Sequence record: NC_031934.1
Reading direction: 5' to 3' (one strand)
Length of the DNA stretch: 64,000 nt
Source of the DNA: Escherichia phage MX01
Translations under genes and position numbers: made by a program
Shown: piece by piece, positions 13,577 to 64,000 of the stretch
Position numbering within the stretch: the first letter of the stretch is position 1
Layout: every line of letters begins with the position of its first letter
The notes under the pieces: model-generated
The model's input: the letters and a program-made list of their open reading frames with translations, nothing else
What the model was told of the DNA's origin: nothing
Database searches by the model: none

Positions 13577-13585
13577 AATAAACCC

Positions 13586-24496: not shown

Positions 24497-26620
24497 CTAC
24501 ATTTTGAATTTATTTGATAAAGAAGAGATGTCCAAAGATGCAGCAAGGATTTCCATAGCTTCGTTGCTTTCAGAAACGGATTCATTAACCAAGAATTGAC
24601 TGAATCCATCCATCAGGCGAACTTCACCAGTTTCCATCAAATGGTCACCATCGTAAACAGATTCGCTGAGCTCTGAAGGAGGTGTTACGGTAGCTTCCAT
24701 AAGGTATTTGTGAGATACTCTATCATTCATGGCAAAAGCTGCTACTTTATCAACCTTCAACAATAATCCACGCGGAAGGATAATTTCTGCTTCTTCGGCA
24801 TATTCTGTAAGGTCACCAGGAGCGATAACTTTAACTGCTTCAGCACCTCGAATAACCATACCAATTTCAGCAATTCTATCTGCAGGACCTTCAGGTGCAA
24901 TTGGATTACCAAACTCGTCTTCTTCCCATTCTACCTCTTCATCATCGACTTCACCCACATCAGATGAACTACCGCTAGCCAATTTAAACAACTCATCAGC
25001 GGAGGATAAAGAACCTTCACCACCAACAAAAACGGCTTGGTTGTCGAGGGCCATATAATTTTTACCAAATTCGCCAAAGATGTTAGGCTTTAATGAGGCT
25101 GACACAAAGTTCTTAAAGTAAAATGTTTTGTTATCGATATTATGACGCAGAATTTTGTATGGCAAATCCTGACCACGATACAAAATAGTACCCTTAGGAA
25201 GTTTAATACCCTTAGTAAATGCTGAGTCTAAATCCTTAATCAATTTAATAGCCGTTGTATTGTTTTCGGATTCAGGTTTACCTAAAAGGAACAAGTTCAT
25301 AGGAGCATATTCAGCTGCGCAATATTCAATAATAGCATTGCTTTCGTCTTTGGTTAGGCCCTTAGGTTTAATGAGCTCACCTGAATAAGCATATGCATCA
25401 CTAATAGAATCGTTAATTAGTTTATAAACGGCTTCCATAGCGAAAGCAATTCGGGATGCTTTCTCTGAAGGGGAGCCTTTAAAACGGGTACTCAGGTTAT
25501 TAACAATTTTCTTAATAATATCCAGACTATTGGTTGTATTGATTTGCGAAAGGCCACTTAAAAGTCTATCGACTTCTGTATTAAAAAATGCCATATTATT
25601 AGAGTAAATTTCAAACCCTTGTTTATCTCTATTAGCATAATTTAGTTTAAATTTACTATCAGTCATTAAAGCGTGTGTGAGAGCAATAGTGTATCTAAAG
25701 TTGGCAAGGTCCTCGCTCTTAGATTTAAACTGAGAAGCCTGGCGCATTTTGGTAATAGCACCTTTTTTAAAGTTCTGACTAATCTGTTCAATACCTTCGT
25801 TCTCAGGGCCTTCAGCCGTGTGAACCGGTACAGAAGCTTCAAACTCGTTATAAACCTGCAATTCTTTAGGGGACAAAGTTTCAGGCTCAGCAGTAGAATA
25901 CTGCGCCGCCGCTGCCATACGACGCGAAATCTTAGTACGAGTAATGACAGCCTTATCAGTACGTTTCTCTTCAACTTGTGCAATAGATGCCGCTACGGCT
26001 TCGACCTTACTTACGGCCTGGCCGGTTTTCTTAGAAACATACACTTCGCCAACTTTAGACTCAACTTTAGTATAAAGATCGGCATTAATTTCAGGCATAC
26101 CCTTGATATCTTCAATATTAGCACCACGACGTACTAAAAGAACGTAGGTATGTTTTCCGCTGAATTGGAACATGTCGTCAACAACTTTAAACTTACCACC
26201 GGTACGAGCCATAGCCAAGCGAGCTAATACGCGCTGAACGGTAGGACCTTTACCTTTCATTTTCTTAGTAGGGAAACGGAACAAAACCGCGTCCATTTTA
26301 AGTTTGTTTATTTGTTCATATATGGTATCGAAAATGGTGTTCAGTGTACCGAGTGGATCGGTACCCAAACCACCCTTGAGTTCTGCCGGAGCGCCTTTAG
26401 CAGATAAACTCATTAAGATAACATGGACGTACTTATCACCCGGCTTAACCATTTTAATAGCATCGCCTTCAGACGCGTATGAAACCATACGCGCTACTAA
26501 ATTGTCATTACCAGGAGCATGGACCGCAAAAATCTGCGGTACGCCCGAGCCAGGTTTAAGATTTGTTACTGGGTAATTTTTTTTATCGCTTTTATCAAAA
26601 ACTTCGTTTAAATTTTCCAT
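24497..26620 (-). CDS. alt: Alt-like ADP-ribosyltransferase, paralog 1
   Basis: 707 aa; N-terminal 230 aa conserved with the two neighbours and T4 Alt (PQIF, LSAKG, KLKGGLG, TKVESKVGEVY); C-terminal R-S-E signature YRGQ / FVSASL / EAEIILPRG. Confidence 0.85.
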   Translation of the reverse strand: MENLNEVFDKSDKKNYPVTNLKPGSGVPQIFAVHAPGNDNLVARMVSYASEGDAIKMVKPGDKYVHVILMSLSAKGAPAELKGGLGTDPLGTLNTIFDTIYEQINKLKMDAVLFRFPTKKMKGKGPTVQRVLARLAMARTGGKFKVVDDMFQFSGKHTYVLLVRRGANIEDIKGMPEINADLYTKVESKVGEVYVSKKTGQAVSKVEAVAASIAQVEEKRTDKAVITRTKISRRMAAAAQYSTAEPETLSPKELQVYNEFEASVPVHTAEGPENEGIEQISQNFKKGAITKMRQASQFKSKSEDLANFRYTIALTHALMTDSKFKLNYANRDKQGFEIYSNNMAFFNTEVDRLLSGLSQINTTNSLDIIKKIVNNLSTRFKGSPSEKASRIAFAMEAVYKLINDSISDAYAYSGELIKPKGLTKDESNAIIEYCAAEYAPMNLFLLGKPESENNTTAIKLIKDLDSAFTKGIKLPKGTILYRGQDLPYKILRHNIDNKTFYFKNFVSASLKPNIFGEFGKNYMALDNQAVFVGGEGSLSSADELFKLASGSSSDVGEVDDEEVEWEEDEFGNPIAPEGPADRIAEIGMVIRGAEAVKVIAPGDLTEYAEEAEIILPRGLLLKVDKVAAFAMNDRVSHKYLMEATVTPPSELSESVYDGDHLMETGEVRLMDGFSQFLVNESVSESNEAMEILAASLDISSLSNKFKM

Positions 26621-26623
26621 TAT

Positions 26624-28669
26624 TTACCCTTGGATGAATTTTTCTGGGATTTCGTCAAAATTAATACATGAAGCTAAAATAGGCATTATATCCACCTTGG
26701 TCGATTTGACAAATGAATCAAAAGACACAGGGTTGTCGGTCTCTGTTTCTACACCTTGGTAAACAACCAATTCGCCTGTTTCCATCAATGCATCGCCATC
26801 ATAGATAACCGCATTTTCTGCTAGTTGGTCTGTGGTCTGGATATCTGCTTCCAATAATTTGGTGTTGTAGTTTCCTTTATATGAGGCATCAGTAATTTTA
26901 GTAATCTTAACTGTAGTTCCACGTGGAAGAATAACCTCTTGTTCTGTTGGAGAACCTGACAATTCACCAGGCATAATTACGTTAATAGAGTCTGCACCAG
27001 AAATTTTCCAGCCGATGTTCATCATTGTATTTTCGGAACTCGTCAGCATACTTGGAAGAACAATTTCATTATCGCCTTGGAAAGATGTCCCAGCGCGATA
27101 GTCTTGATGTACTGCTGCCATTGCGACGTTTGATACCCAGCCGCCAAAGATAATTGGCTTAAGGGACGTTGATACATAGTTCCTGAAATAAAACAATTTT
27201 GAGTGTTTGATTTTATCAAAAGTGTTAACATTTAAATATTGCCCACGCCAAAGTGTAATATCAGGTGGCAATTTATGGCCAATTTCAAATGCCGCATCCA
27301 TATCGTTAATTACTTCAATTACACGCTGGCTATCAATGAATTCTGCATCCTCTTCATAATAATTACCCAACAAATAATTATTAACATCGGTATAATATTG
27401 GCCACAATAAGAAGAAATAGCCTCACGCTGCTCATACTCAAATCGATTATCGCTATAACCGGCTGTAAAATGCATAAGACTTTCTGATGCTTCATTAGCA
27501 AAGTCGGTAACAGCAGCACTTATACGTTGAGCATACTCTTGTTCCCAAAGCTCTGCTGCATATTCTGACGCATCCATATTAGGAGGGGCCTCATTCACTT
27601 TTCTTTCGATAAATGCAGCTTTGCGAAGGTTAAGAATCTCTGCACATGATTCGGCAAAAATCTGCATCTGCTTCATACTGCCAACAGGAGCACGTTTAAG
27701 TTCACGATGCATACGGTTAAAAATTGGGTCAGAGTCTTCGACTCGAATTTCTTCTTTCCAAACACCATTTGCTCGCATAGCCGTATCTGCCGCGCGCATA
27801 CGGTCCATAGTATTCGTTTCAGAAGGTCGAACAAAAATTTCTAGTTCTTCATAATCATCGATAAGTTCTGCCGTAGCCGGTCGACTAAACTTAGCAGCTT
27901 CTGCATCAATTTCGTCCCAACCTTCCGGAACTTCATCTCGAGGAGAATACTGGGCTGCGGCCACAGCACGCCTAGAAATCTTGGTAGTAGTAATAACAGC
28001 CTTATCCGTACGTTTTTCTTCGACTGCCGCTATACTAGCAGATAGTGCTTCTATTTTGGTTACTGATTGGCCGGTTTTCTTAGAAACATAAACCTCACCA
28101 ACTTTAGACTCAACCTTAGTGTAAAGGTCTGCATCAATTTCAGGCATACCTTTTATGTCCTCAATATTAGCTTGTTTACGAACCAGTAAAACGTATGTAT
28201 GTTTGCCTGTAAATTGATACATATCATCGACAACTTTAAACTTGCCGCCAGTACGAGCCATCGCCAAACGTGCCAATACACGTTGAACAGTAGGACCCTT
28301 ACCTTTCATTTTCTTGGTAGGGAAGCGGAAAAGAACTGCATCCATTTTAAGTTTATTTACCTGTTCATATACCGTATCGAAAATGGTATTCAATGTACCA
28401 AATGGGTCAGAACCTAACCCACCTTTCAACTCGGCTGGGGTACCCTTAGCAGACAAACTCATTAGAATAACGTGGACATATTTGTCGCCTGGCTTAACCA
28501 TTTTAATAGCGTCTCCTTGAGACGCATAAGATACCATACGAGCAACCAAGTTATCATTACCTGGTGCTTGGATAGAGAAAATCTGTGGAATACCGGAACC
28601 TGGTTTAAGATTTATTACTGGATAGTTTTTAGCGGAATCACTATCAAAAACTTCGTTTAAATTTTCCAT
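26624..28669 (-). CDS. Alt-like ADP-ribosyltransferase, paralog 2
   Basis: 681 aa; same conserved N-terminal domain; R-S-E signature WRGQ / YVSTSL / EQEVILPRG; divergent central region. Confidence 0.85.
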   Translation of the reverse strand: MENLNEVFDSDSAKNYPVINLKPGSGIPQIFSIQAPGNDNLVARMVSYASQGDAIKMVKPGDKYVHVILMSLSAKGTPAELKGGLGSDPFGTLNTIFDTVYEQVNKLKMDAVLFRFPTKKMKGKGPTVQRVLARLAMARTGGKFKVVDDMYQFTGKHTYVLLVRKQANIEDIKGMPEIDADLYTKVESKVGEVYVSKKTGQSVTKIEALSASIAAVEEKRTDKAVITTTKISRRAVAAAQYSPRDEVPEGWDEIDAEAAKFSRPATAELIDDYEELEIFVRPSETNTMDRMRAADTAMRANGVWKEEIRVEDSDPIFNRMHRELKRAPVGSMKQMQIFAESCAEILNLRKAAFIERKVNEAPPNMDASEYAAELWEQEYAQRISAAVTDFANEASESLMHFTAGYSDNRFEYEQREAISSYCGQYYTDVNNYLLGNYYEEDAEFIDSQRVIEVINDMDAAFEIGHKLPPDITLWRGQYLNVNTFDKIKHSKLFYFRNYVSTSLKPIIFGGWVSNVAMAAVHQDYRAGTSFQGDNEIVLPSMLTSSENTMMNIGWKISGADSINVIMPGELSGSPTEQEVILPRGTTVKITKITDASYKGNYNTKLLEADIQTTDQLAENAVIYDGDALMETGELVVYQGVETETDNPVSFDSFVKSTKVDIMPILASCINFDEIPEKFIQG

Positions 28670-28672
28670 TAT

Positions 28673-30757
28673 TTACCCTTGGATGAATTTTTCTGGGATG
28701 TCATAGAGGTCTATGCATGAAGCCAAAAGAGACAGCACATCAACCCGTGTAGATTTAACAAATGAATCAAAAGATACAGGGCTTTCGGAAGTATCGAAAT
28801 CATCTTGATATACGACCAACTCGCCGGTTTCCATTAGTACGTCACCATCATACACCACAGATTCTTGAAGCTCATCTGTTGTCATAACTTCGGCTTGGAT
28901 GAGTTTTGTATTATTAGATGTTGTTCCATCATTATTAGAAGCATCTGTTATTTTATTAACTTTGACCATTAATCCACGTGGTAGAATAACTTCAGCTTCA
29001 GTTGCTATTCCGAGATTTCCTGGATATACAACATTAACTTTATGAGCCCCATCAATCGCCCATCCTATTTGAACTTTAACGTATTCAGGATTTTCTTTAT
29101 ATGCTCTTATTTCATTAGGATTGATAGTTATTCCTTCTTCATTTTTATCGACTGTCAATTCATTGCGAACTTCAGGTTCTAAAAGACCAATACCTGCGTG
29201 GGTAACACCAAAACGTCCGAAAATGATAGGAGTTAATGAAGTAGATACAAAATTTCTAAAATAAAACACTTTATTTTTAACTAGTGCTTCGTATATAGGA
29301 GCAGTCATACTCTGTGCACGATAAACTGTGATGCCTTCTGGTATACGGTCGCCATTTTCAAAAGCAGAATCCAAATTATTAACTGCAGATTCGATATCTT
29401 TTTCACTCATAATCTCATAGTTATGAGGATTGTAACGACCTAAAAGAAGGTTATTTATATCGCCGTATCCAGAGCCACAATATTCTCTGATGCCACGCTT
29501 TTGCGATGGGGTATATTTAGAACCCTCACGAGCAATAGTAATATCAACCATTGAACCACCACCCACACCAGCAAAACTATATACGCGTTTTTTAATGAAT
29601 TTGGTCTTGGCTGCTTTCCACTTGGACTCGGTCAATTCATTCCAGAGGTCATCAGGTTGTCCTTTACGAGTTTTGTTATGCGTAGCCAACCACTCGCCTT
29701 TGTATTCTTCGAAAACGGTATTAATAGCAGAGGCATATTTTTCTAGAGCTTTAACAGATGTCAAAGGTTCGTTTTTGATGGCTGATAGGATTTTCTCTTT
29801 AATTTTCTCTTTGATTTCACCTATACCGTGAAGAGGAAACATTTTATAATCGTAATGCAATTCTTCAGCAGTACCTTCAGCTACTATATTAGCAACCTTA
29901 TTTTTAGCCGCAGGAGAATTGTTATTAGTAACCATTTCCTGGGCCTCAGGGATTAATGGAACTGTTGCCGGTTTATTAAAATCCGCTGCAGTAGCTTCAT
30001 ATTTCTTAAACAATTCACTTTCATTACGATAAGATTCCAATGATTGGCTTGCTGCAATGGCGCGCCTAGAAATCTTAGTCTTGGTTATAACCATTTTATC
30101 AGTGCGACGTTCTTCAACCTTAGCAATACTGCCGGCAATAGCAGTTTCTTTAGTAACCTGCACACCTTCTTTTTTGGAAATATAAACTTCACCGACATCA
30201 GAATCTACCTTAGTATACAATTCAGCATTAATTCCAGGCATACCTTTGATATCTTCGATATCAGCTTGTTTACGGACTACCAGGATGTAAGTATGTTTAC
30301 CGGTAAATTGGTACATAGCCGGAACCACTTTAAAACGTCCACCGGTTTTCTGTGTTACCAAACGTTGGATAATACGTTGAACGATAGGGCCTTGACCTTT
30401 CATTTTCTTGGTAGGAAAACGGAACATCACGGCATCCATACGAAGCTTTTTAACTTGGTCATAAACCACATCAAAAATAGTATTAATCGCATCTACAGGA
30501 GTAGGGCCAAGGCCACCTTTAAGTTCGGCTGGAGTACCTTTAGCTGAAAGGCTCATAAGGATAACGTGGGCATATTTATCACCCATTTTAACTTGTTTAA
30601 TAGCATCACCTTCAGAAGCGTAGGATACCATACGAGCAACTAATTGGGACTCTGCATCGCCAATCTTCCAAATCTGGGGTACTTTAAGTTTTGGGTTCAA
30701 GTTTACTGTAGGCAGAGTGCCTTCGGACTCAAACACTTCATTTAATTGTTCGGTCAT
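28673..30757 (-). CDS. Alt-like ADP-ribosyltransferase, paralog 3
   Basis: 694 aa; same conserved N-terminal domain; R-S-E signature YRAQ / FVSTSL / EAEVILPRG; C-terminal tail shared with paralog 2. Confidence 0.85.
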   Translation of the reverse strand: MTEQLNEVFESEGTLPTVNLNPKLKVPQIWKIGDAESQLVARMVSYASEGDAIKQVKMGDKYAHVILMSLSAKGTPAELKGGLGPTPVDAINTIFDVVYDQVKKLRMDAVMFRFPTKKMKGQGPIVQRIIQRLVTQKTGGRFKVVPAMYQFTGKHTYILVVRKQADIEDIKGMPGINAELYTKVDSDVGEVYISKKEGVQVTKETAIAGSIAKVEERRTDKMVITKTKISRRAIAASQSLESYRNESELFKKYEATAADFNKPATVPLIPEAQEMVTNNNSPAAKNKVANIVAEGTAEELHYDYKMFPLHGIGEIKEKIKEKILSAIKNEPLTSVKALEKYASAINTVFEEYKGEWLATHNKTRKGQPDDLWNELTESKWKAAKTKFIKKRVYSFAGVGGGSMVDITIAREGSKYTPSQKRGIREYCGSGYGDINNLLLGRYNPHNYEIMSEKDIESAVNNLDSAFENGDRIPEGITVYRAQSMTAPIYEALVKNKVFYFRNFVSTSLTPIIFGRFGVTHAGIGLLEPEVRNELTVDKNEEGITINPNEIRAYKENPEYVKVQIGWAIDGAHKVNVVYPGNLGIATEAEVILPRGLMVKVNKITDASNNDGTTSNNTKLIQAEVMTTDELQESVVYDGDVLMETGELVVYQDDFDTSESPVSFDSFVKSTRVDVLSLLASCIDLYDIPEKFIQG

Positions 30758-51392: not shown

Positions 51393-52037
51393 TCACTTCG
51401 AATAAAGCATTTTCAACTTAATGAATTCAGGGTCATCATTAGGAACCCAACCCTCATTAAATTGTTTAATCATACTCTTTGATGTAGTTTCACTAACATT
51501 TATACCAGAGTTAATGAGACGCCTCCATCCACAAGCTCTTCCACTAGAATTAATTATACAATAATTAGTATAAGCAATATCACTAAGCATCCAATCTAAA
51601 GGGTTTGCTCTAGAAGTTTTCCAAGGACGGTAATCAGGTTGATTCATATAGTTAGCAGCTTTCATATGGGCTCTAACTTCAGGACGTTTGGCTGGGTGAG
51701 TGCATCCAAAGACTCCAAATCCGCCACCGGCATAAACCAAATTAAAATAATCATCATTATCTCTAGCTTGAACTTCCAATTGTTCTGAACGTTCAATATT
51801 AATAACAATATCAAATGGCGTTATAGCCAAAATTTCAACAATAGGTTTTTCTTCTTCGATGGCCTCTTTAAATCTTGATTGCTCGCAAGAGGTCCAATAC
51901 TCTTTACCTTTACAGTCAATAATCACGCCATTTTCAAAAGTACAATTAGTTTTAGAACCTATGTACGAAAACGGCTTAATATTATTAGCCTGACGATTAA
52001 GCCAAGTCATTTTATAAACTATATTCAAAATTTGCAA
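51393..52037 (-). CDS. Hypothetical protein in the gene 32/59 junction (segG slot)
   Basis: 214 aa; no GIY-YIG/HNH motif recognised; start overlaps gene 59 stop. Confidence 0.5.
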   Translation of the reverse strand: MQILNIVYKMTWLNRQANNIKPFSYIGSKTNCTFENGVIIDCKGKEYWTSCEQSRFKEAIEEEKPIVEILAITPFDIVINIERSEQLEVQARDNDDYFNLVYAGGGFGVFGCTHPAKRPEVRAHMKAANYMNQPDYRPWKTSRANPLDWMLSDIAYTNYCIINSSGRACGWRRLINSGINVSETTSKSMIKQFNEGWVPNDDPEFIKLKMLYSK

Positions 52038-54252: not shown

Positions 54253-54260
54253 TATAAATA
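54253..54260 (+). promoter_or_regulatory. Late promoter box TATAAATA upstream of gene 34
   Basis: Exact TATAAATA about 33 nt upstream of gene 34 ATG. Confidence 0.6.
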
Positions 54261-54292: not shown

Positions 54293-57200
54293 ATGGCCGA
54301 TATTTTAAAACCTGCCTTCCGTGCTACATCCGGACTCGATGCTGCAGGCGAGAAAGTTATCAATGTTGCCAAAGCCGATTACAATGTATTAGACGACGGC
54401 GTCAACGTTGAATTCTTTATAGATGAGAACACCATCCAGGCGTACGACGAGACGCGTGGATATAAGAAAGGGTTTGCAGTAATCCATGACCAACGTATCT
54501 GGGTTGCTCAGCGTGATATCGATGCTCCGGCAGGAACCTTTACACCAGGTTATTGGACAGCAACTCGTACCGACCCTAAGTGGATTACCGTAGCGTCTCC
54601 TACACGCCAACTGGCTTCCGGTGAATATATTGCGGTGGATTCCGCTGCTAGCTTTACTACATTTACCCTGCCTCCTAACCCTACAGATGGCGATACCGTT
54701 GTAATTAAAGATATTGGTGGACGTGTCGGTTATAATGAAATCAAGGTCCAATCTAGTTCTGCACCTGGTGCCGGTAACCAGAAAATTGTTCGTTTTGGTA
54801 ATCAGTTCTCTGAAACCCTGATAACCAAACCATTTTCTTATAACATGCTTATCTTTGCTAACCGTCTTTGGCATTTCTGGGAAGCAGGTAACGAAGAACG
54901 TGGTATCCGTGTAGAACCTAACACCGCTCAGTTCCAATCACAAGCCGGTGATAACGTTTTACGTCGTTATACTTCAGGTGCAGTAATTAAATTTACTCTT
55001 CCTAAGTATGCAAACCAGGGTGATATGATTAAAACCGTTGATATTGATGGTTTAGGAAGTAAGTTCCACTTAATCGTCGAAACATTTGATGCTTCGTCTT
55101 CATTAGGTAAGCTTGGTCAGCATAGCATGGAATTCCGTACCTCCGGTGATGGATTCTTCGTTTATAACTCTAACGAAAAATTATGGTATGTTTGGGACGG
55201 CGACCGTCAAACTCGTTTACGCGTAATTCGTGACGATGTTGAGCTCTTGGCTAATGAAAGTGTCATTGTTTTTGGTCCTAATAATACAACGCCGCAGACG
55301 ATTAATATCACATTACCTACAGGTGTAGCCCAGGGTGATGTAGTTAAGATTGCTCTGAACTATCTCCGTAAAGCTCAGACGGTAAATATTAAGGCTGCTG
55401 TAGGAGATAAAATTGCTTCATCTGTCCAGCTGCTTCAATTCCCTAAACGTTCGGAATATCCGCCAGAAACCGAATGGGTATTGAATGATGTACTGACCTT
55501 TAATGGTAATATAAGTTATACTCCGGTTATTGAACTGAGTTATATCGAAGACACCACTATAGGTGGCAAATATTGGGTTGTTGCTCAGAACGTTCCTACT
55601 ATAGAACGTGTAGATTCTAAAGATGATTTAACTCGTGCTCGTTTAGGTGTTATTGCCCTTGCGTCCCAGACTCAAGCAAACGTTGACCACGAAAATAATC
55701 CTGAGAAAGAACTTGCAATTACTCCACAGACTTTAGCTAATCGTGTAGCGACTGAATCTCGTCGTGGTATTGCTCGTATTGCTACTACTGCTCAGGTGAA
55801 CCAGGACACAACCTTCGCATTCCAGGACGATTTGATTATTTCTCCTAAGAAATTAAACGAACGTACTGCAACCGAAACTCGTCGTGGTGTTGCTGAAATT
55901 GCTACGCAAGTTGAAACTAACACGGGTACAGATGATACTACAATCATCACTCCTAAGAAGCTACAAGCACGCCAGGGTTCGGAAAGTCTTTCAGGTATTG
56001 TAACATATACCTCTACTGTAGGAACCACTCCTGCGACTGCTAGAGACACTGTAGGTACTAACGTTTATAATAAGAACGTTGGCAATTTGGTTATTTCTCC
56101 TAAAGCTCTCGACCAGTATAAAGCTACCCAAGTTCAACAGGGTACAGTATATCTTTCTAACCAATCTGAAGTTAACGCAGGTCAAACTGCAAGTGGATTT
56201 GCCAACAGTGCTGTTTCTCCGGAAACATTACATGCTCGTGTGGCTCTTGATACTCGTACAGGGTTAATTGAAATTGCTACGCAAGCAGAGACTGATACTG
56301 GAACAGATTATACTCGTGCGGTAACGCCTAAAACGTTAAATGATAGGAAAGCTACGGAAGGATTGACTGGTATTGCTAGAATTGCAACACAGGTAGAATT
56401 TGATGCTGGTACGTTAGATAATGTTATTTCAACTCCGTTGAAAGTTAAAACACGTTTTAATGATACTGCTAGAACTTCTGTCTCAGCAGCCAGTGGTTTG
56501 GTTGAATCAGGAACCTTATGGAACCATTATACACTAGATATTAGAGAAGCAAATGAGACACAACGTGGTACTGCTCGCCTGGCGACCCAGACCGAAGTCA
56601 ACGTTGGTACCGATGATAAAACTATCATCACTCCTTTGAAATTGCATTCTAAAAAATCTACTGAAAGTTCTGAAGGTATTATTCGTGTTGCAACGAATAC
56701 CGAAACAACCGCAGGAACTTCTAAAGTTCTGGCTGTAAGCCCTTCTGGTTTAAAATATGTAGTACAGACCGAAACCACTTGGGAAGCTACTGCCCTTCGT
56801 CGCGGATTTGTTAAACTAACCGAAGGTGCTTTAACCTATTCAGGAAATAAAGTTACTGGTTCTGGTGTTAAATTTAACTCAGGTACAGGCCTTTACGAGA
56901 ACGACGATACTGTTCTGAACGCAGCTAACTACCCTAAAACAGGTTATGCTGTTTCATCTTACGAGATGAATAAAACTTTACAGAACTTTTTACCTATAAA
57001 TGCTACGGCAGTGAACTCCGAGAAATTGGATGGCCTAGATTCACTTCAGTTCATTCGTAGAGACGTCGACCAAACGGTTAATGGTTCTTTAACGTTGACA
57101 AAACAATTGAACCTGGCAGCTCCTCTGGTGTCTTCTAGTACGGCTAATATTACCGGCAACACTATTTTAGGTTCTCTAGAAGTAACTGGAAATTCTACTT

Positions 57201-58342
57201 TTAAAAATGATGTATCTGTTAGCTCAGGTAAATCTATTAAATTTGTAGGGCCCCAGTCAGGTGCAGGTACTTGGAACTCTCAAGGTGATACTTTAGCTCC
57301 GATTTTTGCCGAGATAAATTCGACCCCAGATGCCAAGTTCCATCCTATTGTTAAACAACGTTTAGGGCAAGGTACGTTCTCTTTAGGCACTGTAAATGAT
57401 GGAACTCGTGATTTTAAAATACATTATCTTCCATCGCCGGGTTCTTTAGAATCTTTCTACTGGACCTTTAATACGACCGGTGACTTTGCTGTTAATAGTG
57501 GTTCTATTAGTATTTCCAAGAACGCTAATATCACAGGTACAACTACTTCTAACGGTGTTTCTACAACCACACTAAATGCTTCTGCTCTGTCTTCGTTGCA
57601 AAACGTAACTACTTCAGGTACTATCGTTTCTACCGGACAGGTATCTGCAAATAATGGTTTGGTTGCTCAAAAATACGTTCGTTCTGTTGGTGTTAAACCT
57701 ACATTAGCATCGCAGGTTCCTACTGCAGAAACAGTTGGCTTCTGGTCTGTTGATATCAATGATTCGGCCACATTTAACCTGTTCCCAGGTTATTGGACGA
57801 TGAAAACGAAACGTCAGGTTAATATTGACACGGTCCAAACTAAACCTGCTGGTGTTTCTGATGAGATATGGAATGCTTCTGGTTGGTTAACAGAAACGGG
57901 TGCATTTAGTTCTCCGGCTATTCGTTATCGTAACGAAGACGGTAGTTTTGGTGACGAAGTTCTCGGTACATCAGGTCAGAAATTACGTGGTACTTGGTTT
58001 GATTATTCTGTTCGTGATAAGGAAGTTAAATATCCTGGTACGTTAACCCAGTTTGGTAATACTCTGGATTCATGTTATCAGGATTGGGTGTGCTATCCTA
58101 CAGGATTGAATGGTGGTACTATTCGTTATACACGTACCTGGCAGAAAAATAAAAACGCATGGACTACGTTCTCTATGGTCTATACCGCAGATAACCCTCC
58201 TTCTGCGGAAGAGGTTGGTGCATTGCCTGCTGATAACGCTACAATGGGTAACATTACAATCCTTGATTGGTTACGTATTGGTAACGTTCGTATTATTCCT
58301 GACCCAGTCACTAAATCCGTTAAGTTTGAGTGGATTGAATAA
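54293..58342 (+). CDS. 34: Long tail fibre proximal subunit gp34
   Basis: 1349 aa; internal degenerate fibre repeats; late box 54253-54260; followed by 35-36-37. Confidence 0.95.
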   Translation: MADILKPAFRATSGLDAAGEKVINVAKADYNVLDDGVNVEFFIDENTIQAYDETRGYKKGFAVIHDQRIWVAQRDIDAPAGTFTPGYWTATRTDPKWITVASPTRQLASGEYIAVDSAASFTTFTLPPNPTDGDTVVIKDIGGRVGYNEIKVQSSSAPGAGNQKIVRFGNQFSETLITKPFSYNMLIFANRLWHFWEAGNEERGIRVEPNTAQFQSQAGDNVLRRYTSGAVIKFTLPKYANQGDMIKTVDIDGLGSKFHLIVETFDASSSLGKLGQHSMEFRTSGDGFFVYNSNEKLWYVWDGDRQTRLRVIRDDVELLANESVIVFGPNNTTPQTINITLPTGVAQGDVVKIALNYLRKAQTVNIKAAVGDKIASSVQLLQFPKRSEYPPETEWVLNDVLTFNGNISYTPVIELSYIEDTTIGGKYWVVAQNVPTIERVDSKDDLTRARLGVIALASQTQANVDHENNPEKELAITPQTLANRVATESRRGIARIATTAQVNQDTTFAFQDDLIISPKKLNERTATETRRGVAEIATQVETNTGTDDTTIITPKKLQARQGSESLSGIVTYTSTVGTTPATARDTVGTNVYNKNVGNLVISPKALDQYKATQVQQGTVYLSNQSEVNAGQTASGFANSAVSPETLHARVALDTRTGLIEIATQAETDTGTDYTRAVTPKTLNDRKATEGLTGIARIATQVEFDAGTLDNVISTPLKVKTRFNDTARTSVSAASGLVESGTLWNHYTLDIREANETQRGTARLATQTEVNVGTDDKTIITPLKLHSKKSTESSEGIIRVATNTETTAGTSKVLAVSPSGLKYVVQTETTWEATALRRGFVKLTEGALTYSGNKVTGSGVKFNSGTGLYENDDTVLNAANYPKTGYAVSSYEMNKTLQNFLPINATAVNSEKLDGLDSLQFIRRDVDQTVNGSLTLTKQLNLAAPLVSSSTANITGNTILGSLEVTGNSTFKNDVSVSSGKSIKFVGPQSGAGTWNSQGDTLAPIFAEINSTPDAKFHPIVKQRLGQGTFSLGTVNDGTRDFKIHYLPSPGSLESFYWTFNTTGDFAVNSGSISISKNANITGTTTSNGVSTTTLNASALSSLQNVTTSGTIVSTGQVSANNGLVAQKYVRSVGVKPTLASQVPTAETVGFWSVDINDSATFNLFPGYWTMKTKRQVNIDTVQTKPAGVSDEIWNASGWLTETGAFSSPAIRYRNEDGSFGDEVLGTSGQKLRGTWFDYSVRDKEVKYPGTLTQFGNTLDSCYQDWVCYPTGLNGGTIRYTRTWQKNKNAWTTFSMVYTADNPPSAEEVGALPADNATMGNITILDWLRIGNVRIIPDPVTKSVKFEWIE
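55720..56830 (+). repeat. Degenerate in-frame tandem repeats within gene 34
   Basis: Recurring peptide unit E(S/T)RRG(I/V)A(R/E)IAT...(V/T)(N/D)xGTDDTTIITPKKL, at least six copies. Confidence 0.5.
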
Positions 58343-58350
58343 GAGGTATT

Positions 58351-59472
58351 ATGGAAAGATTTATGGCAGAATTTGGACAAGGATATGTCCAGGTTCCTAC
58401 ATTATCTGAAAACAATGCTGTAAGGTATAAACTTAGTATAGCGGGTAGTTGTACTAAGTCTACCACAAAAGCATATGTTAAATTTCAAGATGGGGACTTC
58501 GGTCCCCAGAATTTTCAAAATGGATTAAACCTTATAGAAATCGATGTTAGTGCTGAACCCAAAATAGTGGCTAACAAAACTTATAGTTTTACAAAAGATT
58601 TTGATGTTATCTCTGAAGCTTTTATAACGTATATAAATTCTATACCAGCCAATAGAATAGTTTGTTTAGTATCTTCTGGTAGATTAAATGCTTCACAAAA
58701 ACTTATCGATTGGTTCCGTGCAGCAGGAAGTACCGCATTTCCATCTAAATGGCTAATAGACCGCTTCGAGCCGTCTTATTCGGCATTTTATGTTTCAGGA
58801 AGGAATACCATAGTAATGGAACATGTGCTTTATAATGATGGGGTGTTTGTCGAAGATGTTTCTACTCCATTAGAAGTGGTATTTGATGATATCAGCGACG
58901 TCGGTGGTACAGGATATCCTGTCAGAATTGTTGAAGACGAAAGCACTTATCTAAGCAATGATGGAGATGAAATTAAGCGATTTCCTACCGAATCTCCTAC
59001 CACCCCATTAACAGATTATAATATGAAACCAGGTGAATTCTTTTACCTTAAGTTTCAATTAATGTGCGACCAAGCTTTAAAAGATGTCGGGACCTCTCAG
59101 ATGTCTGTTAGATTTTTTAATGCCTCAGGTGCTTTAACCGGGACAGTTAATATGGACGTTCCTTCCAACGTTCCTGCTGGTGCATGGATGACATTTGAAC
59201 GGGTTGTAATGGTTCCTGAAGGTACTACAGACTTTACCCTTTATGCCAGAAAAACAGCTTCGGCCGGACAAGGTGGAGTTCGAAATGTTATGTTCGGTGA
59301 GATATCTGAATCAGAACCTCAGCCAAAACCTGCTGAATTTGGTGTTAACGGTATTCGTATGAACTTTGGTACGGAAACTAAAAATATGGGTACTACCATA
59401 GCCCAGCTATATGATAAAACAGGCACTAAACCTGGTCAGGTTTGGGTCGCTGAATTTAGAGAAAAATATTAA
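58351..59472 (+). CDS. 35: Long tail fibre hinge protein gp35
   Basis: 373 aa (T4 gp35 372 aa); position. Confidence 0.9.
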   Translation: MERFMAEFGQGYVQVPTLSENNAVRYKLSIAGSCTKSTTKAYVKFQDGDFGPQNFQNGLNLIEIDVSAEPKIVANKTYSFTKDFDVISEAFITYINSIPANRIVCLVSSGRLNASQKLIDWFRAAGSTAFPSKWLIDRFEPSYSAFYVSGRNTIVMEHVLYNDGVFVEDVSTPLEVVFDDISDVGGTGYPVRIVEDESTYLSNDGDEIKRFPTESPTTPLTDYNMKPGEFFYLKFQLMCDQALKDVGTSQMSVRFFNASGALTGTVNMDVPSNVPAGAWMTFERVVMVPEGTTDFTLYARKTASAGQGGVRNVMFGEISESEPQPKPAEFGVNGIRMNFGTETKNMGTTIAQLYDKTGTKPGQVWVAEFREKY

Positions 59473-59546: not shown

Positions 59547-60194
59547 ATGGCAGATTTAAAATTAGGTTCTACAGCAGGAGGTTCGGTATTATGGCACCAA
59601 GGTAATTTTCCCTTAACGCCTGTATCAAATGACCTTCTTTACAAAACATATAAAGTTTACACCGAATATAATAAACCACAAGCCACTGATAACGATTTTG
59701 TTTCAAAAGCAAATGGTGGTAATTATAAGAATAACGTGTATTTTGAAAAAGGGCTGACCTTTAATGATACTAATGGATACGGTATTAAATTAGGAGCAAG
59801 AACTGGCGGAGCACCGTTCACGGCTTCTTTCCGTATTAAAGGCGCTTTTGGATATGAAACGGAAGACGGTACTCCGTTCATGATATTCAACCCAAGTACA
59901 GTAGTAGGTGCTAAACGCCTTACAGTAATGGGTGATTCATTATTCCGTCAAGTTTATGACGAATCAGGTCGTGTATTCAGCCCAGGCAACACCCCTACTA
60001 AAGCTCAAGTAGGATTATCGTTAGTAGATAACGCAAAACAGGTCCAAATAAATAATACTAACATGCAAACAATGACCGGGGTACTTGCTGCTCCTAACTT
60101 TATTTCGCTGAATCCGGCCTCTGACGCAGGACACGTTCCTCGTTTTGACCAGATTGTTATTAAAGATTCTATTCAAGATTTTGGTTATTATTAA
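59547..60194 (+). CDS. 36: Long tail fibre distal connector gp36
   Basis: 215 aa; position. Confidence 0.9.
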   Translation: MADLKLGSTAGGSVLWHQGNFPLTPVSNDLLYKTYKVYTEYNKPQATDNDFVSKANGGNYKNNVYFEKGLTFNDTNGYGIKLGARTGGAPFTASFRIKGAFGYETEDGTPFMIFNPSTVVGAKRLTVMGDSLFRQVYDESGRVFSPGNTPTKAQVGLSLVDNAKQVQINNTNMQTMTGVLAAPNFISLNPASDAGHVPRFDQIVIKDSIQDFGYY

Positions 60195-60202
60195 GAGGCA
60201 TT

Positions 60203-63200
60203 ATGGCTACTTTAAAGCAAATCCAATTTAAAAGAAGTAAAGTGGCCGGTGTACGTCCAACACCGGCCCAGTTGGCTGAAGGCGAACTGGCTATTAACTT
60301 AAAGGACCGTTTACTTTTTACTAAAGACGATACTGGAGCGATTATCGACCTTGGCTTTGCTAAAGGTGGTAATATCGATGGTAACGTTATCCATAAAGGA
60401 AATTACACCCAAACCGGTAATTATACTATAGCCGGAGCCATTTCACAAACGTCCGGACATTTTACTACTACTGGTAATATAACAGCAACCGGTGATATTA
60501 CTGCAAAAGCCCGTTTAATGACAGATAACGGTGAAGTTCTTGTACGAGGTACAGGAACTACTCATGTTCGATTCCAGGATTTGGCTGATGCTCGCGAAAG
60601 AGGTATAATTTATTCTCAAAACCGTGCTGGGGATACCAAGCAAATCTTGAACGTTCGTGTCCAGGATTATACTAATTCGACATCTAATATTTTTGCATTC
60701 AACGGCGACGGTTTATTTTATGCTCCGTCTATTTCTGGTGGAACATCAATAAAATCTCCAGTAATTTATACTAATACCGTTAATACTGATAGTAAGAAGA
60801 TTGGTGATTACGATATATCTTCATTAGCAAATAACACTCCATTTGCAGAAGGCGAAACGGCTATTAACCACCTCCGTGTTATGCGAAATGCTGTAGGAGC
60901 AGGTATTTTCCACGAAGTTAATGTTAATGACGGAATAACCTGGTATTCCGGAGATGGCTTAGACACTTATCTTTGGTCGTTTACCTGGTCCGGTGGATTG
61001 AAAGCAGGTCATTCTATTTCTGTAGGTCTTCCAGGTGGTTCTAAAGGATATTCTGAATTAGGAACTGCATCAATTGCTCTTGGCGATAATGACACCGGGT
61101 TAAAATGGCATCAGGATGGATATTATTTCAGCGTTAATAACGGCACGAGAACTTTCCTGTACAGCCCCGCAGAAACCACCAGTCTTAGAAAAATGGTTAT
61201 GGGTTATTCTGTAAACGGTACCGATTTAACCACTCCTCCGGTGGAAAACTATGCATTAGCCACTGTTGTTACTTACCATGATAATAACGCGGTAGGTGAC
61301 GGCCAAACTCTTTTAGGTTATTATCAAGGTGGTAATTATCACCACTATTTCCGTGGTAAAGGTACTACAAACGTTAACACTGCTGGCGGTTTGTTAGTTA
61401 CTCCTGGTAATATTGATGTTGTTGGTGGTTCGGTTAATATTGATGGCCGTAACAACGCTTCGACTCTTTTGTTCAGAGGAAATACAACAGGAAGTAGTTC
61501 AGTTGATAATATGACTATCAGCGTTTGGGGTGACACTTTTAATACGGTAGGTGGTTCTCGTAAAAACGTAATGGAAACATCTGATGCTACCGGCTGGATG
61601 CATTATATTCAACGAACTACAGCAGGTAAAGTCGAATCCTATTTAAATGGTTCCATGAATGTAATTGAAGGATTGACTGTAGTAAAAAATGCTACATTTG
61701 ACGGTACAATCAGCGCAGCCGGTGGAATCGCGACAAATGCTGTAAATGGTCTTCGTATTTGGAACGACGACTACGGTGCTATTTTCCGCCGTTCTGAAAA
61801 TGGCCTTCATATTATTCCTACCGAGTTTGGACAAGGTAAAACCGGAAATATCGGACCACTTCGCCCATTTAGTATAGCTTTAGATACAGGTAAGGTTAAT
61901 ATTCCTGATTTACAGTCAAGATACAATACGATCACTGCGAACGGCTATATTAAATTTGTTGGCCATGGTGCAGGCGCTGGTGGTTATGACATTCAATATG
62001 CTCAAGCGGCTCCTATTTTCCAGGAAATTGATGATGACGCAGTAAGTAAATATTATCCTATTGTTAAACAGAAGTTTTTAAACAGTAAAGCTGTTTGGTC
62101 TTTAGGTACTGAAATAGAATCTGGTACATTCGTTATTCATCATCTGAAAGAAGATGGTTCACAAGGCCATACGTCTCGTTTTAATCAAGACGGTACTGTT
62201 AACTTCCCGGATAATGTTCTGGTCGACGGTGATATTAACATGAAAGGCGTGATGACTTTTGATGCCGGACGTTTAGGATCACGAGATTATTTTAAATTTA
62301 ACCATTGGGGTGATAGTAATAATGCTCGTGATAACATCATCCAGTTAGAAGATAGTCAAGGCGCCCATTTTTCCACTGAACGTACTTTAGCGACAGGTGC
62401 AATTAAAACTCGTTTCTTTGGCGAAACATTCACTGATGGTACATTATACCTAAATCAGATGAATAATAGCTCTGAAGGATTCTCTATTAATAATTGGGGA
62501 AATTCAGAAGTTGGTCGCGCGGCAGTGATGGAAGTCAGTGATTCCAAAGGTTATCACTTCTATACGGAACGCAGGACAGATAACAGTTTGGCGTTTGATG
62601 TTGCTGGCAATTTTACTACGCATGGACCTAGCGGAATAACCATCAAAAACTCAACTGGCGCTCGCCACATCTGGTTTAAAGATGATAGCGATGCAGAAAA
62701 GGCTGTTATCTGGGCTACAGATGAGGGTATTTTACATATTCGCAATAATCATGGGGGTTCATTTAGTCATCACTTCCAGGGCGCAATGATTAAAGTGGGA
62801 GAGCGTGTTCCTTATGCCGGAGATCAAGGGCTTATTCGCGGTGAAGTTTCTGGTGGTGCATGGGTAGACTGGCGAGAGCGCCCGGCTGGTATTCTCTTAG
62901 ATTGTCAGGATTCACAAAACCAAGCATATTCAATTTGGAAAGCAGTTCATTGGGGTTCTGATTATCTTGCGACAATGGGTGTTCATGCTGGCGGTGGTAA
63001 CGCTACCGTAATGATGCATATGAACAAAGGCGGCTGGTATTCATGGGCTGCAAATGGTGATTTCACATCTAGTGCTTCTGTATATTGTAACGACGTTTAT
63101 ATTCGTTCTGACCGTCGTCTGAAAATTAACGTTGAAGACTACGAAGAAAATGCGGTAGATAAGGTAAATAAACTAAAAGTTAAAACCTACGATAAAGTTA

Positions 63201-63460
63201 AGTCTCTTTCTGACCGAGAAGTCATCGCACATGATATTGGTATTATCGCGCAGGATTTACAAGAAATTTTACCGGAAGCTGTTAGCACTTCTAATGTCGG
63301 ATCTCTTGATAACCCAGAAGAAATTTTAACAATTTCTAACTCTGCTGTGAACGCGCTTTTAATTAAGGCCATTCAGGAAATGAGTGAAGAAATTAAAGAA
63401 TTGAAAACGCCTCTCTTTACTAAAATTGCTCGCAAAATTGGTAAATACTTTAAATTCTAA
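60203..63460 (+). CDS. 37: Long tail fibre distal subunit gp37 with C-terminal intramolecular chaperone-like domain
   Basis: 1085 aa; C-terminal ~120 aa (SDRRLKINVEDY...AHDIGIIAQDLQEILPEAV...) resembles autoproteolytic fibre chaperone domains. Confidence 0.93.
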   Translation: MATLKQIQFKRSKVAGVRPTPAQLAEGELAINLKDRLLFTKDDTGAIIDLGFAKGGNIDGNVIHKGNYTQTGNYTIAGAISQTSGHFTTTGNITATGDITAKARLMTDNGEVLVRGTGTTHVRFQDLADARERGIIYSQNRAGDTKQILNVRVQDYTNSTSNIFAFNGDGLFYAPSISGGTSIKSPVIYTNTVNTDSKKIGDYDISSLANNTPFAEGETAINHLRVMRNAVGAGIFHEVNVNDGITWYSGDGLDTYLWSFTWSGGLKAGHSISVGLPGGSKGYSELGTASIALGDNDTGLKWHQDGYYFSVNNGTRTFLYSPAETTSLRKMVMGYSVNGTDLTTPPVENYALATVVTYHDNNAVGDGQTLLGYYQGGNYHHYFRGKGTTNVNTAGGLLVTPGNIDVVGGSVNIDGRNNASTLLFRGNTTGSSSVDNMTISVWGDTFNTVGGSRKNVMETSDATGWMHYIQRTTAGKVESYLNGSMNVIEGLTVVKNATFDGTISAAGGIATNAVNGLRIWNDDYGAIFRRSENGLHIIPTEFGQGKTGNIGPLRPFSIALDTGKVNIPDLQSRYNTITANGYIKFVGHGAGAGGYDIQYAQAAPIFQEIDDDAVSKYYPIVKQKFLNSKAVWSLGTEIESGTFVIHHLKEDGSQGHTSRFNQDGTVNFPDNVLVDGDINMKGVMTFDAGRLGSRDYFKFNHWGDSNNARDNIIQLEDSQGAHFSTERTLATGAIKTRFFGETFTDGTLYLNQMNNSSEGFSINNWGNSEVGRAAVMEVSDSKGYHFYTERRTDNSLAFDVAGNFTTHGPSGITIKNSTGARHIWFKDDSDAEKAVIWATDEGILHIRNNHGGSFSHHFQGAMIKVGERVPYAGDQGLIRGEVSGGAWVDWRERPAGILLDCQDSQNQAYSIWKAVHWGSDYLATMGVHAGGGNATVMMHMNKGGWYSWAANGDFTSSASVYCNDVYIRSDRRLKINVEDYEENAVDKVNKLKVKTYDKVKSLSDREVIAHDIGIIAQDLQEILPEAVSTSNVGSLDNPEEILTISNSAVNALLIKAIQEMSEEIKELKTPLFTKIARKIGKYFKF

Positions 63461-63464
63461 TAAC

Positions 63465-63481
63465 AAGGGGCATTGCCCCTT
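63465..63481 (+). terminator. Short hairpin AAGGGGC-ATT-GCCCCTT between genes 37 and 38
   Basis: 7-bp stem directly after gene 37 stop and before gene 38 RBS. Confidence 0.45.
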
Positions 63482-63493
63482 TGGAGATAAATT

Positions 63494-64000
63494 ATGGCAG
63501 TAGTTGGAGTTCCTGGCTGGATTGGAAGTTCAGCCGTAAATGAAACGGGTCAGCGCTGGATGAGTCAAGCAGCTGGTCAATTAAGATTGGGTGTTCCTTG
63601 CTGGATGAGTCAATTTGCAGGTCGCTCAAGAGAAATTATTCATACACTTGGAGCAGACCATAACTTCAATGGTCAATGGTTCCGAGACCGCTGCTTTGAA
63701 GCAGGCAGTGCACCTATAGTGTTTAATATCACAGGTGATTTGGTATCTTACGACCGTAATGTTCCATTGTTCTTTATGAATGCCGACACACCTAATGAAT
63801 ATGTCAATTTGACTATTCATGGAGGCGTGCATATGTGGGGCCGAGGCGGCCACGGCGGATGGACTCATTCAGGTGGCGACGGTAACGGTCAATGGGGTGG
63901 TGATTGTATAGTCAACCATATAGGTAATAGACTACGTATTTGGAACTATGGGGTTATCTGTGGCGGTGGCGGTGGCGGTGGTGGCATTGCGTATCGTCCT
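63494..64000 (+). CDS. 38: gp38 adhesin (T2-type receptor-recognition protein), 3'-truncated at window edge
   Basis: Hand-translated [63 protein letters not shown]... with glycine-rich motifs ([16 protein letters not shown]). Confidence 0.9.

Follow-up and report, generated by a model that had tools for sequence, protein, structure and literature searches.

The removal of a C-terminal piece of gp37 in T2-type long tail fibres, the Peptidase_S74 intramolecular chaperone and the polyglycine (PGII) sandwich adhesin have all been published already, and the locus reported here leaves the current understanding of them unchanged. In T2, gp37 is proteolytically processed with loss of its C-terminus, as summarised in PMC3157838 with reference to Drexler 1986. 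The Ser-Lys dyad of the Peptidase_S74 family was defined in PMC8326128, and cleavage has been demonstrated for S16 gp37 at the motif DLNVS^SDRRIKK, with DVYIR^SDGRLKI in the fPS phages (PMC7917993). The tryptophan residues of gp38 have a described role in docking (PMC6851490). Among the related adhesins, dependence on OmpA and LPS was shown experimentally for infection by AV111, while the receptors given for other phages are OmpA with LPS (RB32), OmpA (Ox2) and OmpF (FL33). The T6 adhesin is of the Tsx type, and T2 binds FadL and OmpF.

The window, by which the whole analysed stretch of 64,000 nucleotides is meant, very probably carries at its downstream end the receptor-specificity end of a long tail fibre of the T2/S16 type, in its module as well as in its mechanism.

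Fibre operon and mosaic composition of the adhesin locus

The ORF map gives the canonical T-even long-tail-fibre operon, all on the + strand as are the other features below, with gp34 (54293-58342), gp35 (58351-59472), gp36 (59547-60194) and gene 37 (60203..63460) followed by gene 38 as the immediate downstream neighbour, its ATG (63494) lying 34 nt past the gene 37 stop and its reading frame running past the window's end at 64000. The holin, which comes after gene 38 in every relative examined, is also located beyond that end. Gene 37 encodes the distal subunit of the fibre, a protein of 1085 residues matching PHROG 1699 ('long tail fiber protein distal subunit') with E=0 and bearing a Pfam Gp34_trimer domain at aa 452-558. 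Across the entire 64-kb window, neither Rfam families nor tRNA genes were detected.

Just 3' of the gene 37 stop codons lies a G+C-rich hairpin (AAGGGGC-ATT-GCCCCTT, 63465..63481), after which comes the Shine-Dalgarno sequence of gene 38 (GGAG, 63483-63486). Hairpins with different stem sequences were found at the equivalent site in T2 (C-TTCG-G loop), S16 and Bp7; these were matched by eye, the three being misregistered in the MAFFT alignment and the covariation count unusable. The hairpin departs from the consensus of an intrinsic terminator, and neither a late promoter (TATAAATA) nor an intrinsic terminator was found between genes 37 and 38.

The genome backbone is that of a Dhakavirus (Bp7-like). 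Nucleotide identity to Bp7, 89% upstream, falls to 38-56% from about 62150 onward, and the megablast matches to Bp7, JS98 and E33 end at 62212-62232. Past about 62150, identity is mostly 89-99% to FL33 (Tequatrovirus) and P479 (Gaprivervirus). The distal mature part of gp37 (62150..63106), judged by this identity profile and the megablast matches, is an exchanged segment within the Dhakavirus backbone and has at its end a predicted docking tip for gp38 (...CNDVYIR968). Together with the chaperone domain of gp37 and the N-terminal domain of gp38, it forms a cassette common to Tequatrovirus and Gaprivervirus phages. The adhesin locus is a mosaic of three pieces, namely the gp37 tip with the chaperone domain and the gp38 N-domain, the gp38 beta-helix, and the block of hypervariable segments (HVS); the sharing of the first piece across genera provides a tidy example of mosaicism. 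Searching the contig collection for the exact gp37 sequence gave no identical copy on record, and it was therefore impossible to obtain the complete gp38 of this phage.

A difference in identity within the first of these pieces was also observed. Compared with this phage, T6 and Ox2 have 96-98% identity in the gp38 N-domain and 70% in the chaperone domain but 25-35% in the last 60 residues of mature gp37, and over 12 phages the identities of N-domain and chaperone domain correlate with r=0.85 as against 0.64 for N-domain and tip. It is conceivable, though doubtful, that the gp38 attachment domain is transferred together with the removed chaperone domain and not with the mature gp37 tip to which it finally binds. 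If so, chaperone domain and N-domain would be functionally matched, occupying the DVYIR surface successively in a hand-over step; alternatively, the two may be linked merely by their adjacency on the DNA.

The gp38 adhesin and its receptor type

The window cuts gp38 at position 64000, so that 169 of about 266 residues fall inside it and some 97, with most of the hypervariable receptor-binding segments, lie beyond. The preliminary description had recognized in this gene an adhesin of the T2/T6 type, and the family searches bear this out: Pfam Gp38_N (PF21721) matches aa 1-42 with E=3.8e-21 and GP38 (PF05268) aa 47-166 with E=7.9e-46, the PHROG assignment reads 'tail fiber protein; host specificity', and the crystal structures of the PP01 gp38 receptor-binding domain (9V85, E=2e-50) and of S16 gp38 (6F45_D, E=8e-37) are both matched. 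The N-terminal gp37-attachment domain, on whose presence that recognition had been made to depend, is there (aa 1-42, 63494..63619). Its Trp prongs W9, W22 and W37 align with the tryptophans of S16 gp38, all three docking residues being kept, and the domain is 100% identical to those of RB32, FL33 and P479.

The first part of the central beta-helix domain follows (aa 47-115, 63632..63838), as placed by Pfam GP38 and by alignment with 9V85 and S16, and then the start of the PGII sandwich (63839..64000), for which the S16 alignment and the loop definitions of the PP01 structure paper were used. The latter comprises the glycine-rich motif GRM1 (GRGGHGG, aa 116-122, 63839-63859), the 12 residues of loop A/HVS1 (aa 123-134, 63860-63895), a beta-helix turn (63905-63961), the G8 helix (aa 157-164, 63962-63985), which aligns with helix 3 of S16 (151-GGGGGGGG-158), and the first five residues of HVS2/loop B (IAYRP, 63986-64000). 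Glycine accounts for 21 of the 55 residues at aa 115-169 compared with 13 of the 114 upstream. The earlier account of poly-glycine motifs framing hypervariable segments holds for one segment inside the window, where the glycine-rich parts are GRM1, short GGD/GG stretches and the G8 helix, and was overstated beyond that; close relatives of this gp38 have the full set of five GRMs and 10 PGII helices.

Over aa 115-169, gp38 is 96% identical to AV111, and 96-98% across AV111, QL01 and IME540. Identity is lower to RB32 (85%) and Ox2 (80%), and lower again to FL33 (57%), T6 (56%) and T2 (43%). Where full-length relatives have this loop A, the rest of their receptor-binding domain reaches 76-77% identity with Ox2 and RB32 but only 36-55% with FL33, T2 and T6. 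When a receptor-binding domain composed of this gp38 and P479 was used as a tblastn query, the low-complexity filter masked most of it; only aa 136-177 aligned, and they pointed to AV111. An exact 30-mer from HVS1 had as its sole match in IMG/VR a QL01-like contig, 91% identical and with a different gp37. Loops of the AV111/QL01/Ox2/RB32 class suggest OmpA as the likely receptor, possibly with a contribution of LPS. As gp38 ends at residue 169 in the window, this assignment draws on one loop and on its linkage to the rest of the domain in relatives.

The module could also be as described and its receptor a different one (Tsx, OmpC, OmpF, FadL or LPS alone), either through HVS2-4 of another type or through small changes that switched specificity, which is the less likely reading but one of appreciable weight given how little of the binding surface falls inside the window, namely loop A and the first five HVS2 residues. 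Exchange junctions at GRM1 are evident in FL33 and FL34, whose similarity stops exactly there (63846-63855) and then gives way to divergence; HVS sets can be exchanged at the GRMs. In PP01 gp38, moreover, most of the specificity is carried by loops B to E, with loops D and E deciding binding, and the Discussion of PMC12032242 describes switching of gp38 between OmpA and Tsx by few substitutions. Against this, the start of HVS2 (IAYRP) is likewise of the AV111/Ox2/RB32 type, all of the full-length relatives found with this loop A (P479, IME540, QL01-like and AV111) keep one type of downstream receptor-binding domain, 91% identical mutually, and Trojet et al. recovered no viable chimeric phage in which the exchange lay between GRM1 and GRM5. 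The OmpA assignment remains the preferred one. The host-range determinant of this Dhakavirus-like phage is identified, and the receptor predicted for it, OmpA and perhaps LPS as well, can be tested; this could be of use for phage cocktails or host-range engineering, a value that is practical only.

Chaperone domain and cleavage motif of gp37

The last 117 of the 1085 residues of gp37, at the extreme C-terminus of the distal subunit, form an intramolecular chaperone domain of the Peptidase_S74 type (aa 969-1085, 63107..63457), recognized by Pfam, by sequence and profile matches to PDB entries and by alignment. It starts with SDRRLKINVEDYEE at residue 969 (nt 63107) and continues to the stop, in agreement with the preliminary description, which had seen such a domain in the last 120 or so residues; the start it gave for the module, 63095, is codon 965, four residues ahead of the serine. 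Pfam PF13884 covers aa 969-1027 (the core, 63107-63283) and takes in all but the last of the 58 profile positions (1-57); the match scores 53 bits (E=4.1e-14), where the cutoff is 22. Like the two Pfam matches of gp38, it lies well clear of its cutoff and far from chance level. The domain was aligned with those of T2, T6, S16, Ox2, RB32 and Bp7. The resemblance to known chaperone domains noted earlier was found at profile level too: a profile from six T-even chaperone domains matches S16 gp37 (6F45_A, 3e-44), the intramolecular chaperone (ICA) of MyRF (7DC3, 4e-10), a phage tail fibre (8JOV, 3e-7) and the chaperone domain of the GA-1 neck appendage (3GUD, 1.3e-3). Downstream of the core are a predicted helical coiled-coil segment (about 63332-63406) and a basic tail, TPLFTKIARKIGKYFKF (63407-63457). 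The AlphaFold2 model made from the single sequence of aa 901-1085 had a mean pLDDT of 38 and was unusable, only long C-terminal helices being visible in it.

The autocleavage motif DVYIR^SDRRLK (63092..63124) was located by motif comparison and alignment, with R968/S969 as the predicted scissile bond. Its Ser-Lys dyad consists of S969, residue 1 of the domain, and K974, five residues on within SDRRLK, and corresponds to S911/K916 in endoNF and S587/K592 in MyRF, D970-K974 aligning with D588-K592 of the latter. The motif has the same form as that of S16 gp37, for which processing was demonstrated. Its S, D, R and K are invariant in the six T-even chaperone domains, a comparison that took in T2, T6, S16, Bp7 and QL01-like domains. 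T6, Ox2 and the fPS phages likewise have DVYIR ahead of the serine. The domain might instead be a non-cleaving relic kept on the mature fibre, with gp38 attached elsewhere or not at all. The basic 17-residue tail, which T2 does not have, could be read in this way; yet T6, Ox2 and RB32 possess the same tail and have gp38 as their adhesin, and with Ser969, Lys974 and the SDxRxK motif intact at profile position 1, behind an unchanged DVYIR, such a relic is highly improbable.

By analogy with its homologues, gp37 of this phage would thus be a cleaved fibre subunit. It would be made as a precursor of 1085 residues in which S969-F1085 acts as the Peptidase_S74 intramolecular chaperone, trimerising through its C-terminal helices and nucleating the folding of the trimeric beta-helix that precedes it. 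The chaperone domain would then remove itself by a cut of the R968-S969 bond catalysed by Ser969 and Lys974, and this would uncover the flat ...DVYIR tip of gp37. One gp38 monomer may dock at that tip through the three helices of its N-domain, in a 3:1 stoichiometry as expected from homologues, with W9, W22 and W37 each entering one of three symmetry-related pockets. The remainder of gp38 would be a beta-helix with protruding glycine-rich PGII helices, and these would show the hypervariable loops that bind the outer-membrane protein.

Comparison with T4 and with related fibres

The arrangement of T4, with an adhesin at the needle tip of gp37 and gp38 as a chaperone, was considered and rejected, as the preliminary description had already argued, there being no homology in gp38 or in the gp37 tip: BLASTP found no similarity between gp38 and T4 gp38 (E=15) or between the distal 385 residues of gp37 and the T4 gp37 tip (E=0.099), and in Pfam T4 gp37 has the Collar and Phage_fiber domains without S74, whereas gp37 here is the reverse. 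That gp38 might be a T4-style assembly chaperone outside the virion, leaving receptor binding to gp37, can practically be dismissed, for the names 'long tail fiber assembly catalyst' and 'assembly chaperone' borne by some database homologues are carried over from T4, while gp38 has the E value just given against its T4 namesake and strong matches among adhesin families and among crystal structures in which the adhesin sits at the tip of the fibre, and gp37 is without the T4 needle domains.

At the level of the chaperone family, the domain shares with those of the endosialidases, the T5 L-shaped fibre, the GA-1 neck appendage and MyRF the Ser-Lys dyad beginning at domain residue 1, the GxIAQE..LP core and a C-terminal helical segment. 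The similarity is at family level only, and unlike in those proteins the released surface would here become the docking site of gp38.

T2 shows the same organisation, with the C-terminus of gp37 proteolytically removed, and has a related motif, SDIRLK. The module reported here is of a T6/K3-like subtype, however, with identities to T2 of 67% in the N-domain, 36% in the beta-helix and 39% in the chaperone domain. The comparison with S16 (6F45; Dunne et al. 2018) is similar in kind. Both have an autocleaved type of gp37 chaperone end (S^SDRRIKK in S16, R^SDRRLK here), a three-helix attachment domain of gp38 with Trp prongs, a beta-helix and a PGII sandwich with a G8 helix; sequence identity is modest, at 57-58% in the gp38 N-domain, 34% in the beta-helix and 31% in the chaperone domain, and the two mature gp37 tips are different. 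The loops seen here are of a type other than in S16, which binds OmpC of Salmonella.

The T6-type attachment domain is found also in Ox2 and RB32, with gp38 N-domains 98-100% identical and with loop A/HVS1 and the start of HVS2 of the same type, and the RB32 chaperone domain is 93% identical; loop A has GQQ in RB32 and GQW here. AV111 and QL01 have the same type of receptor-binding domain as this phage but combine it with another attachment domain (53-58% identical) and another chaperone domain (32%). The backbone in which the adhesin module is set here is that of a Dhakavirus and not of a Tequatrovirus.

Tail-fibre operon and the gp37 chaperone domain

A canonical T-even long-tail-fibre operon occupies the plus strand of the window's last 10 kb. 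The ORF map placed gp34 at 54293-58342 (1349 aa), gp35 at 58351-59472, gp36 at 59547-60194 and the distal fibre subunit gp37 at 60203-63460 (1085 aa), followed by a partial gp38, the tip adhesin, which runs for 169 codons from the ATG at 63494 to the window end. PHROG gave concordant assignments for gp35, gp36, gp37 and gp38, the four proteins tested. T4-type late-promoter boxes number 17 in the window compared with 6.3 expected by chance; the sole exact copy in the last 10 kb is TATAAATA (54253-54260), with the gp34 start 33 nt downstream. Since no exact box was found between genes 34 and 38, genes 34-38 may be transcribed from this box or from variant boxes. A borderline Pfam match (28.5 bits, cutoff 27; E=2e-6) linked residues 57-130 of gp35, the proximal hinge connector, with ILEI (PF15711, interleukin-like EMT inducer); it may represent a common small beta-rich fold or chance.

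The preliminary description had likened the gp37 C-terminus to the autoproteolytic intramolecular chaperone domains of phage fibres and endosialidases, and both Pfam and PDB matches bear this out. Peptidase_S74 ('chaperone of endosialidase') was matched at residues 969-1027 (E=4.1e-14; 53 bits, cutoff 22), spanning profile positions 1-57 of 58. In phmmer searches of the PDB the domain matched S16 gp37 (6F45_A, 4e-12), the phage tail fibre 8JOV and the ICA domain of MyRF (7DC3); a profile of six T-even chaperone domains recovered the same three (3e-44, 3e-7 and 4e-10, respectively) and added the GA-1 neck-appendage chaperone domain 3GUD at 1.3e-3. The peptide originally quoted for this domain starts at S969 (nt 63107) and runs for 117 residues to the stop, so its coordinates were correct within four codons. 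A model of the chaperone fold by single-sequence AlphaFold2 reached a pLDDT of only 38.

Cleavage in the S74 family falls N-terminal to the catalytic serine, the catalytic dyad being Ser911/Lys916 in endoNF and Ser587/Lys592 in MyRF (PMC8326128). The gp37 motif SDRRLK contains the dyad residues S969 and K974, phmmer aligned D970-K974 with MyRF D588-K592, and the S, D, R and K of the motif are invariant in all six chaperone domains compared (the window, T2, T6, S16, Bp7 and a QL01-like phage). S16 gp37 autocleaves at DLNVS^SDRRIKK, whereby the last 113 residues are released and the gp38 docking surface is exposed, and DVYIR^SDGRLKI has been predicted as the cleavage site in fPS phages (PMC7917993). 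The corresponding motif in the window, DVYIR^SDRRLKI, is a predicted cleavage site; a mature chain ending at R968 would have about 105 kDa rather than about 118 kDa. T2 gp37 was already known in 1986 to be processed proteolytically (Drexler et al., a work listed among the references of PMC3157838).

Behind the helical segment, the last 17 residues of the chaperone domain form a basic, amphipathic-looking tail, TPLFTKIARKIGKYFKF (aa 1069-1085; 63407-63457), which is common to T6, Ox2, RB32 and P479 but absent from T2; the chaperone domains of S16, Bp7 and QL01 have ELKxxxKxLL in its place. Immediately 3' of the gene 37 stop codons lies a G+C-rich hairpin, AAGGGGC-ATT-GCCCCTT (63465-63481), with the gene 38 Shine-Dalgarno directly 3' of it. 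It is no consensus terminator because only three T follow the stem. Hairpins with other stem sequences and C-TTCG-G or TACG loops occupy this 37/38 position in T2, S16 and Bp7; it is the structure that is conserved, not the sequence.

The gp38 adhesin and its predicted receptor

Pfam recognized Gp38_N at gp38 residues 1-42 (E=3.8e-21) and the GP38 family at residues 47-166 (E=7.9e-46), and the PDB matches were the receptor-binding domain of PP01 gp38 (9V85, 2e-50; PMC12892980) and S16 gp38 (6F45_D, 8e-37). The three N-terminal helices of S16 gp38 each bear a tryptophan at the apex, and these side chains fill three symmetry-equivalent pockets in the gp37 trimer (PMC6851490). Since W9, W22 and W37 of the window gp38 stand at the aligned positions, the attachment domain (N-domain), predicted to dock on gp37, is retained; its absence was what the preliminary description had named as refuting the adhesin module. 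The first glycine-rich motif (GRM1, GRGGHGG, aa 116-122) is followed by loop A, the first hypervariable segment (HVS1; 12 residues, aa 123-134), a beta-helix turn, an eight-glycine run (aa 157-164) that aligns with PGII helix 3 of S16, and, at the window end, the opening residues of HVS2/loop B (IAYRP). Most of loop B and all of loops C, D and E fall past 64000, in the roughly 300 nt of gene 38 outside the window; in PP01 gp38 the decisive contacts are made by loops D and E (PMC12892980).

Among 12 phages, which are non-independent, the N-domain subtype correlates better with the subtype of the cleaved-off chaperone domain (r=0.85) than with that of the mature gp37 tip (r=0.64). For T6 and Ox2, identity to the window is 96-98% over the N-domain, 70% over the chaperone domain and 25-35% over the final 60 residues of mature gp37. 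This co-variation is explained most simply by adjacency on the DNA; a reading of the same sequence comparison in which the chaperone domain hands over functionally to gp38 seems quite improbable.

The partial gp38 was aligned with adhesins from annotated records, including phages with known receptors, as the preliminary description had proposed, and identity was taken over residues 115-169. Among the known-receptor phages the closest were AV111 (OmpA and LPS, 96%), RB32 (OmpA and LPS, 85%) and Ox2 (OmpA, 80%), followed by S16 (OmpC, 60%), FL33 (OmpF, 57%), T6 (Tsx, 56%) and T2 (FadL/OmpF, 43%); outside this group, identity was 98% to IME540 and a QL01-like contig and 95% to P479. Further adhesins with a known receptor are those of AV119, FL08 and K3 (OmpA), FL04 (Tsx) and PP01 (OmpC). 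The dependence of AV111 on OmpA and LPS has been demonstrated experimentally (PMC10844046), both are recognized by RB32 (Trojet 2011), and Ox2 is a classical OmpA phage. Full-length relatives with the window's loop A carry one type of downstream receptor-binding domain, 91% identical to each other and 76-77% to Ox2/RB32, compared with 36-55% to FL33, T2 and T6. Both the identities to AV111, RB32 and Ox2 and this downstream domain type suggest that the window gp38 is probably an OmpA-type adhesin, a prediction of moderate confidence because 97 residues lie outside the window and exchange junctions occur at GRM1.

Mosaic origin of the locus

Most of the window is Dhakavirus: over 20 kb, it is 96% identical to Bp7, and the figure for IME08 is 94%. 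Nucleotide identity to Bp7, ~89% before about 62150, is down to 38-56% from there to about 63500, and megablast matches to Bp7, JS98 and E33 end at 62212-62232, inside gene 37. FL33 (Tequatrovirus) and P479 (Gaprivervirus) match most of 62150-63650 at 89-100% identity. Similarity to FL33/FL34 ends at 63846-63855, exactly at GRM1, beyond which the closest relatives are IME540, QL01 and AV111; QL01 and AV111 have another attachment domain (53-58% identical to the window's) and another chaperone domain (32%). These differing relatives along 62150-63855 indicate that the adhesin locus was built from at least three exchangeable pieces, a mode of assembly described by Trojet et al. The closest database match to 62000-64000 was P479 (92.9% nucleotide identity), and an exact look-up of gp37 found no identical copy on record.

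QL01-like similarity was seen to start at about 63580, downstream of the gp38 attachment domain. Identity to T6 in gene 37 is 30-50% except at 62153-62452, where it reaches 72-79%; this island may be the sign of a conserved motif for exchange. In Bp7 gp38 as annotated (12997-13788 in the Bp7 stretch compared), the conserved adhesin C-terminus is gone past about residue 215 (...GGRGGEDGIITYLDLAVVLL...), suggesting that the Bp7 record has a frameshift or sequencing error; this record names the protein 'assembly catalyst', a label inherited from T4.

Two further loci lie on the minus strand. At 24497-30757, Pfam recognized an ADP-ribosyltransferase exoenzyme domain (PF03496; E from 4e-17 to 9e-36) in each of three tandem ORFs (707, 681 and 694 aa), which look like a triplicated Alt-like locus. 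An ORF of 214 aa with a TTG start (51393-52037), between gp59-like and gp32-like genes, had no Pfam match, and its Bp7 counterpart at the same place is annotated as a hypothetical protein.

Comparison with known adhesin modules

A T4-type arrangement was rejected, in agreement with the preliminary description: BLASTP found no similarity between the window gp38 and T4 gp38 (E=15), and none was found between the distal 385 residues of gp37 and the T4 gp37 tip (E=0.099). The domain content is also reversed: Collar and Phage_fiber domains are present and S74 is absent in T4 gp37, whereas the window gp37 has S74 without these two. The adhesin module first noted at 63095-64000 is confirmed as an observation, and its T2-type interpretation is supported. 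The locus is already known in kind: it is a T2/S16-type adhesin module of textbook form, carried by a Bp7-like coliphage.
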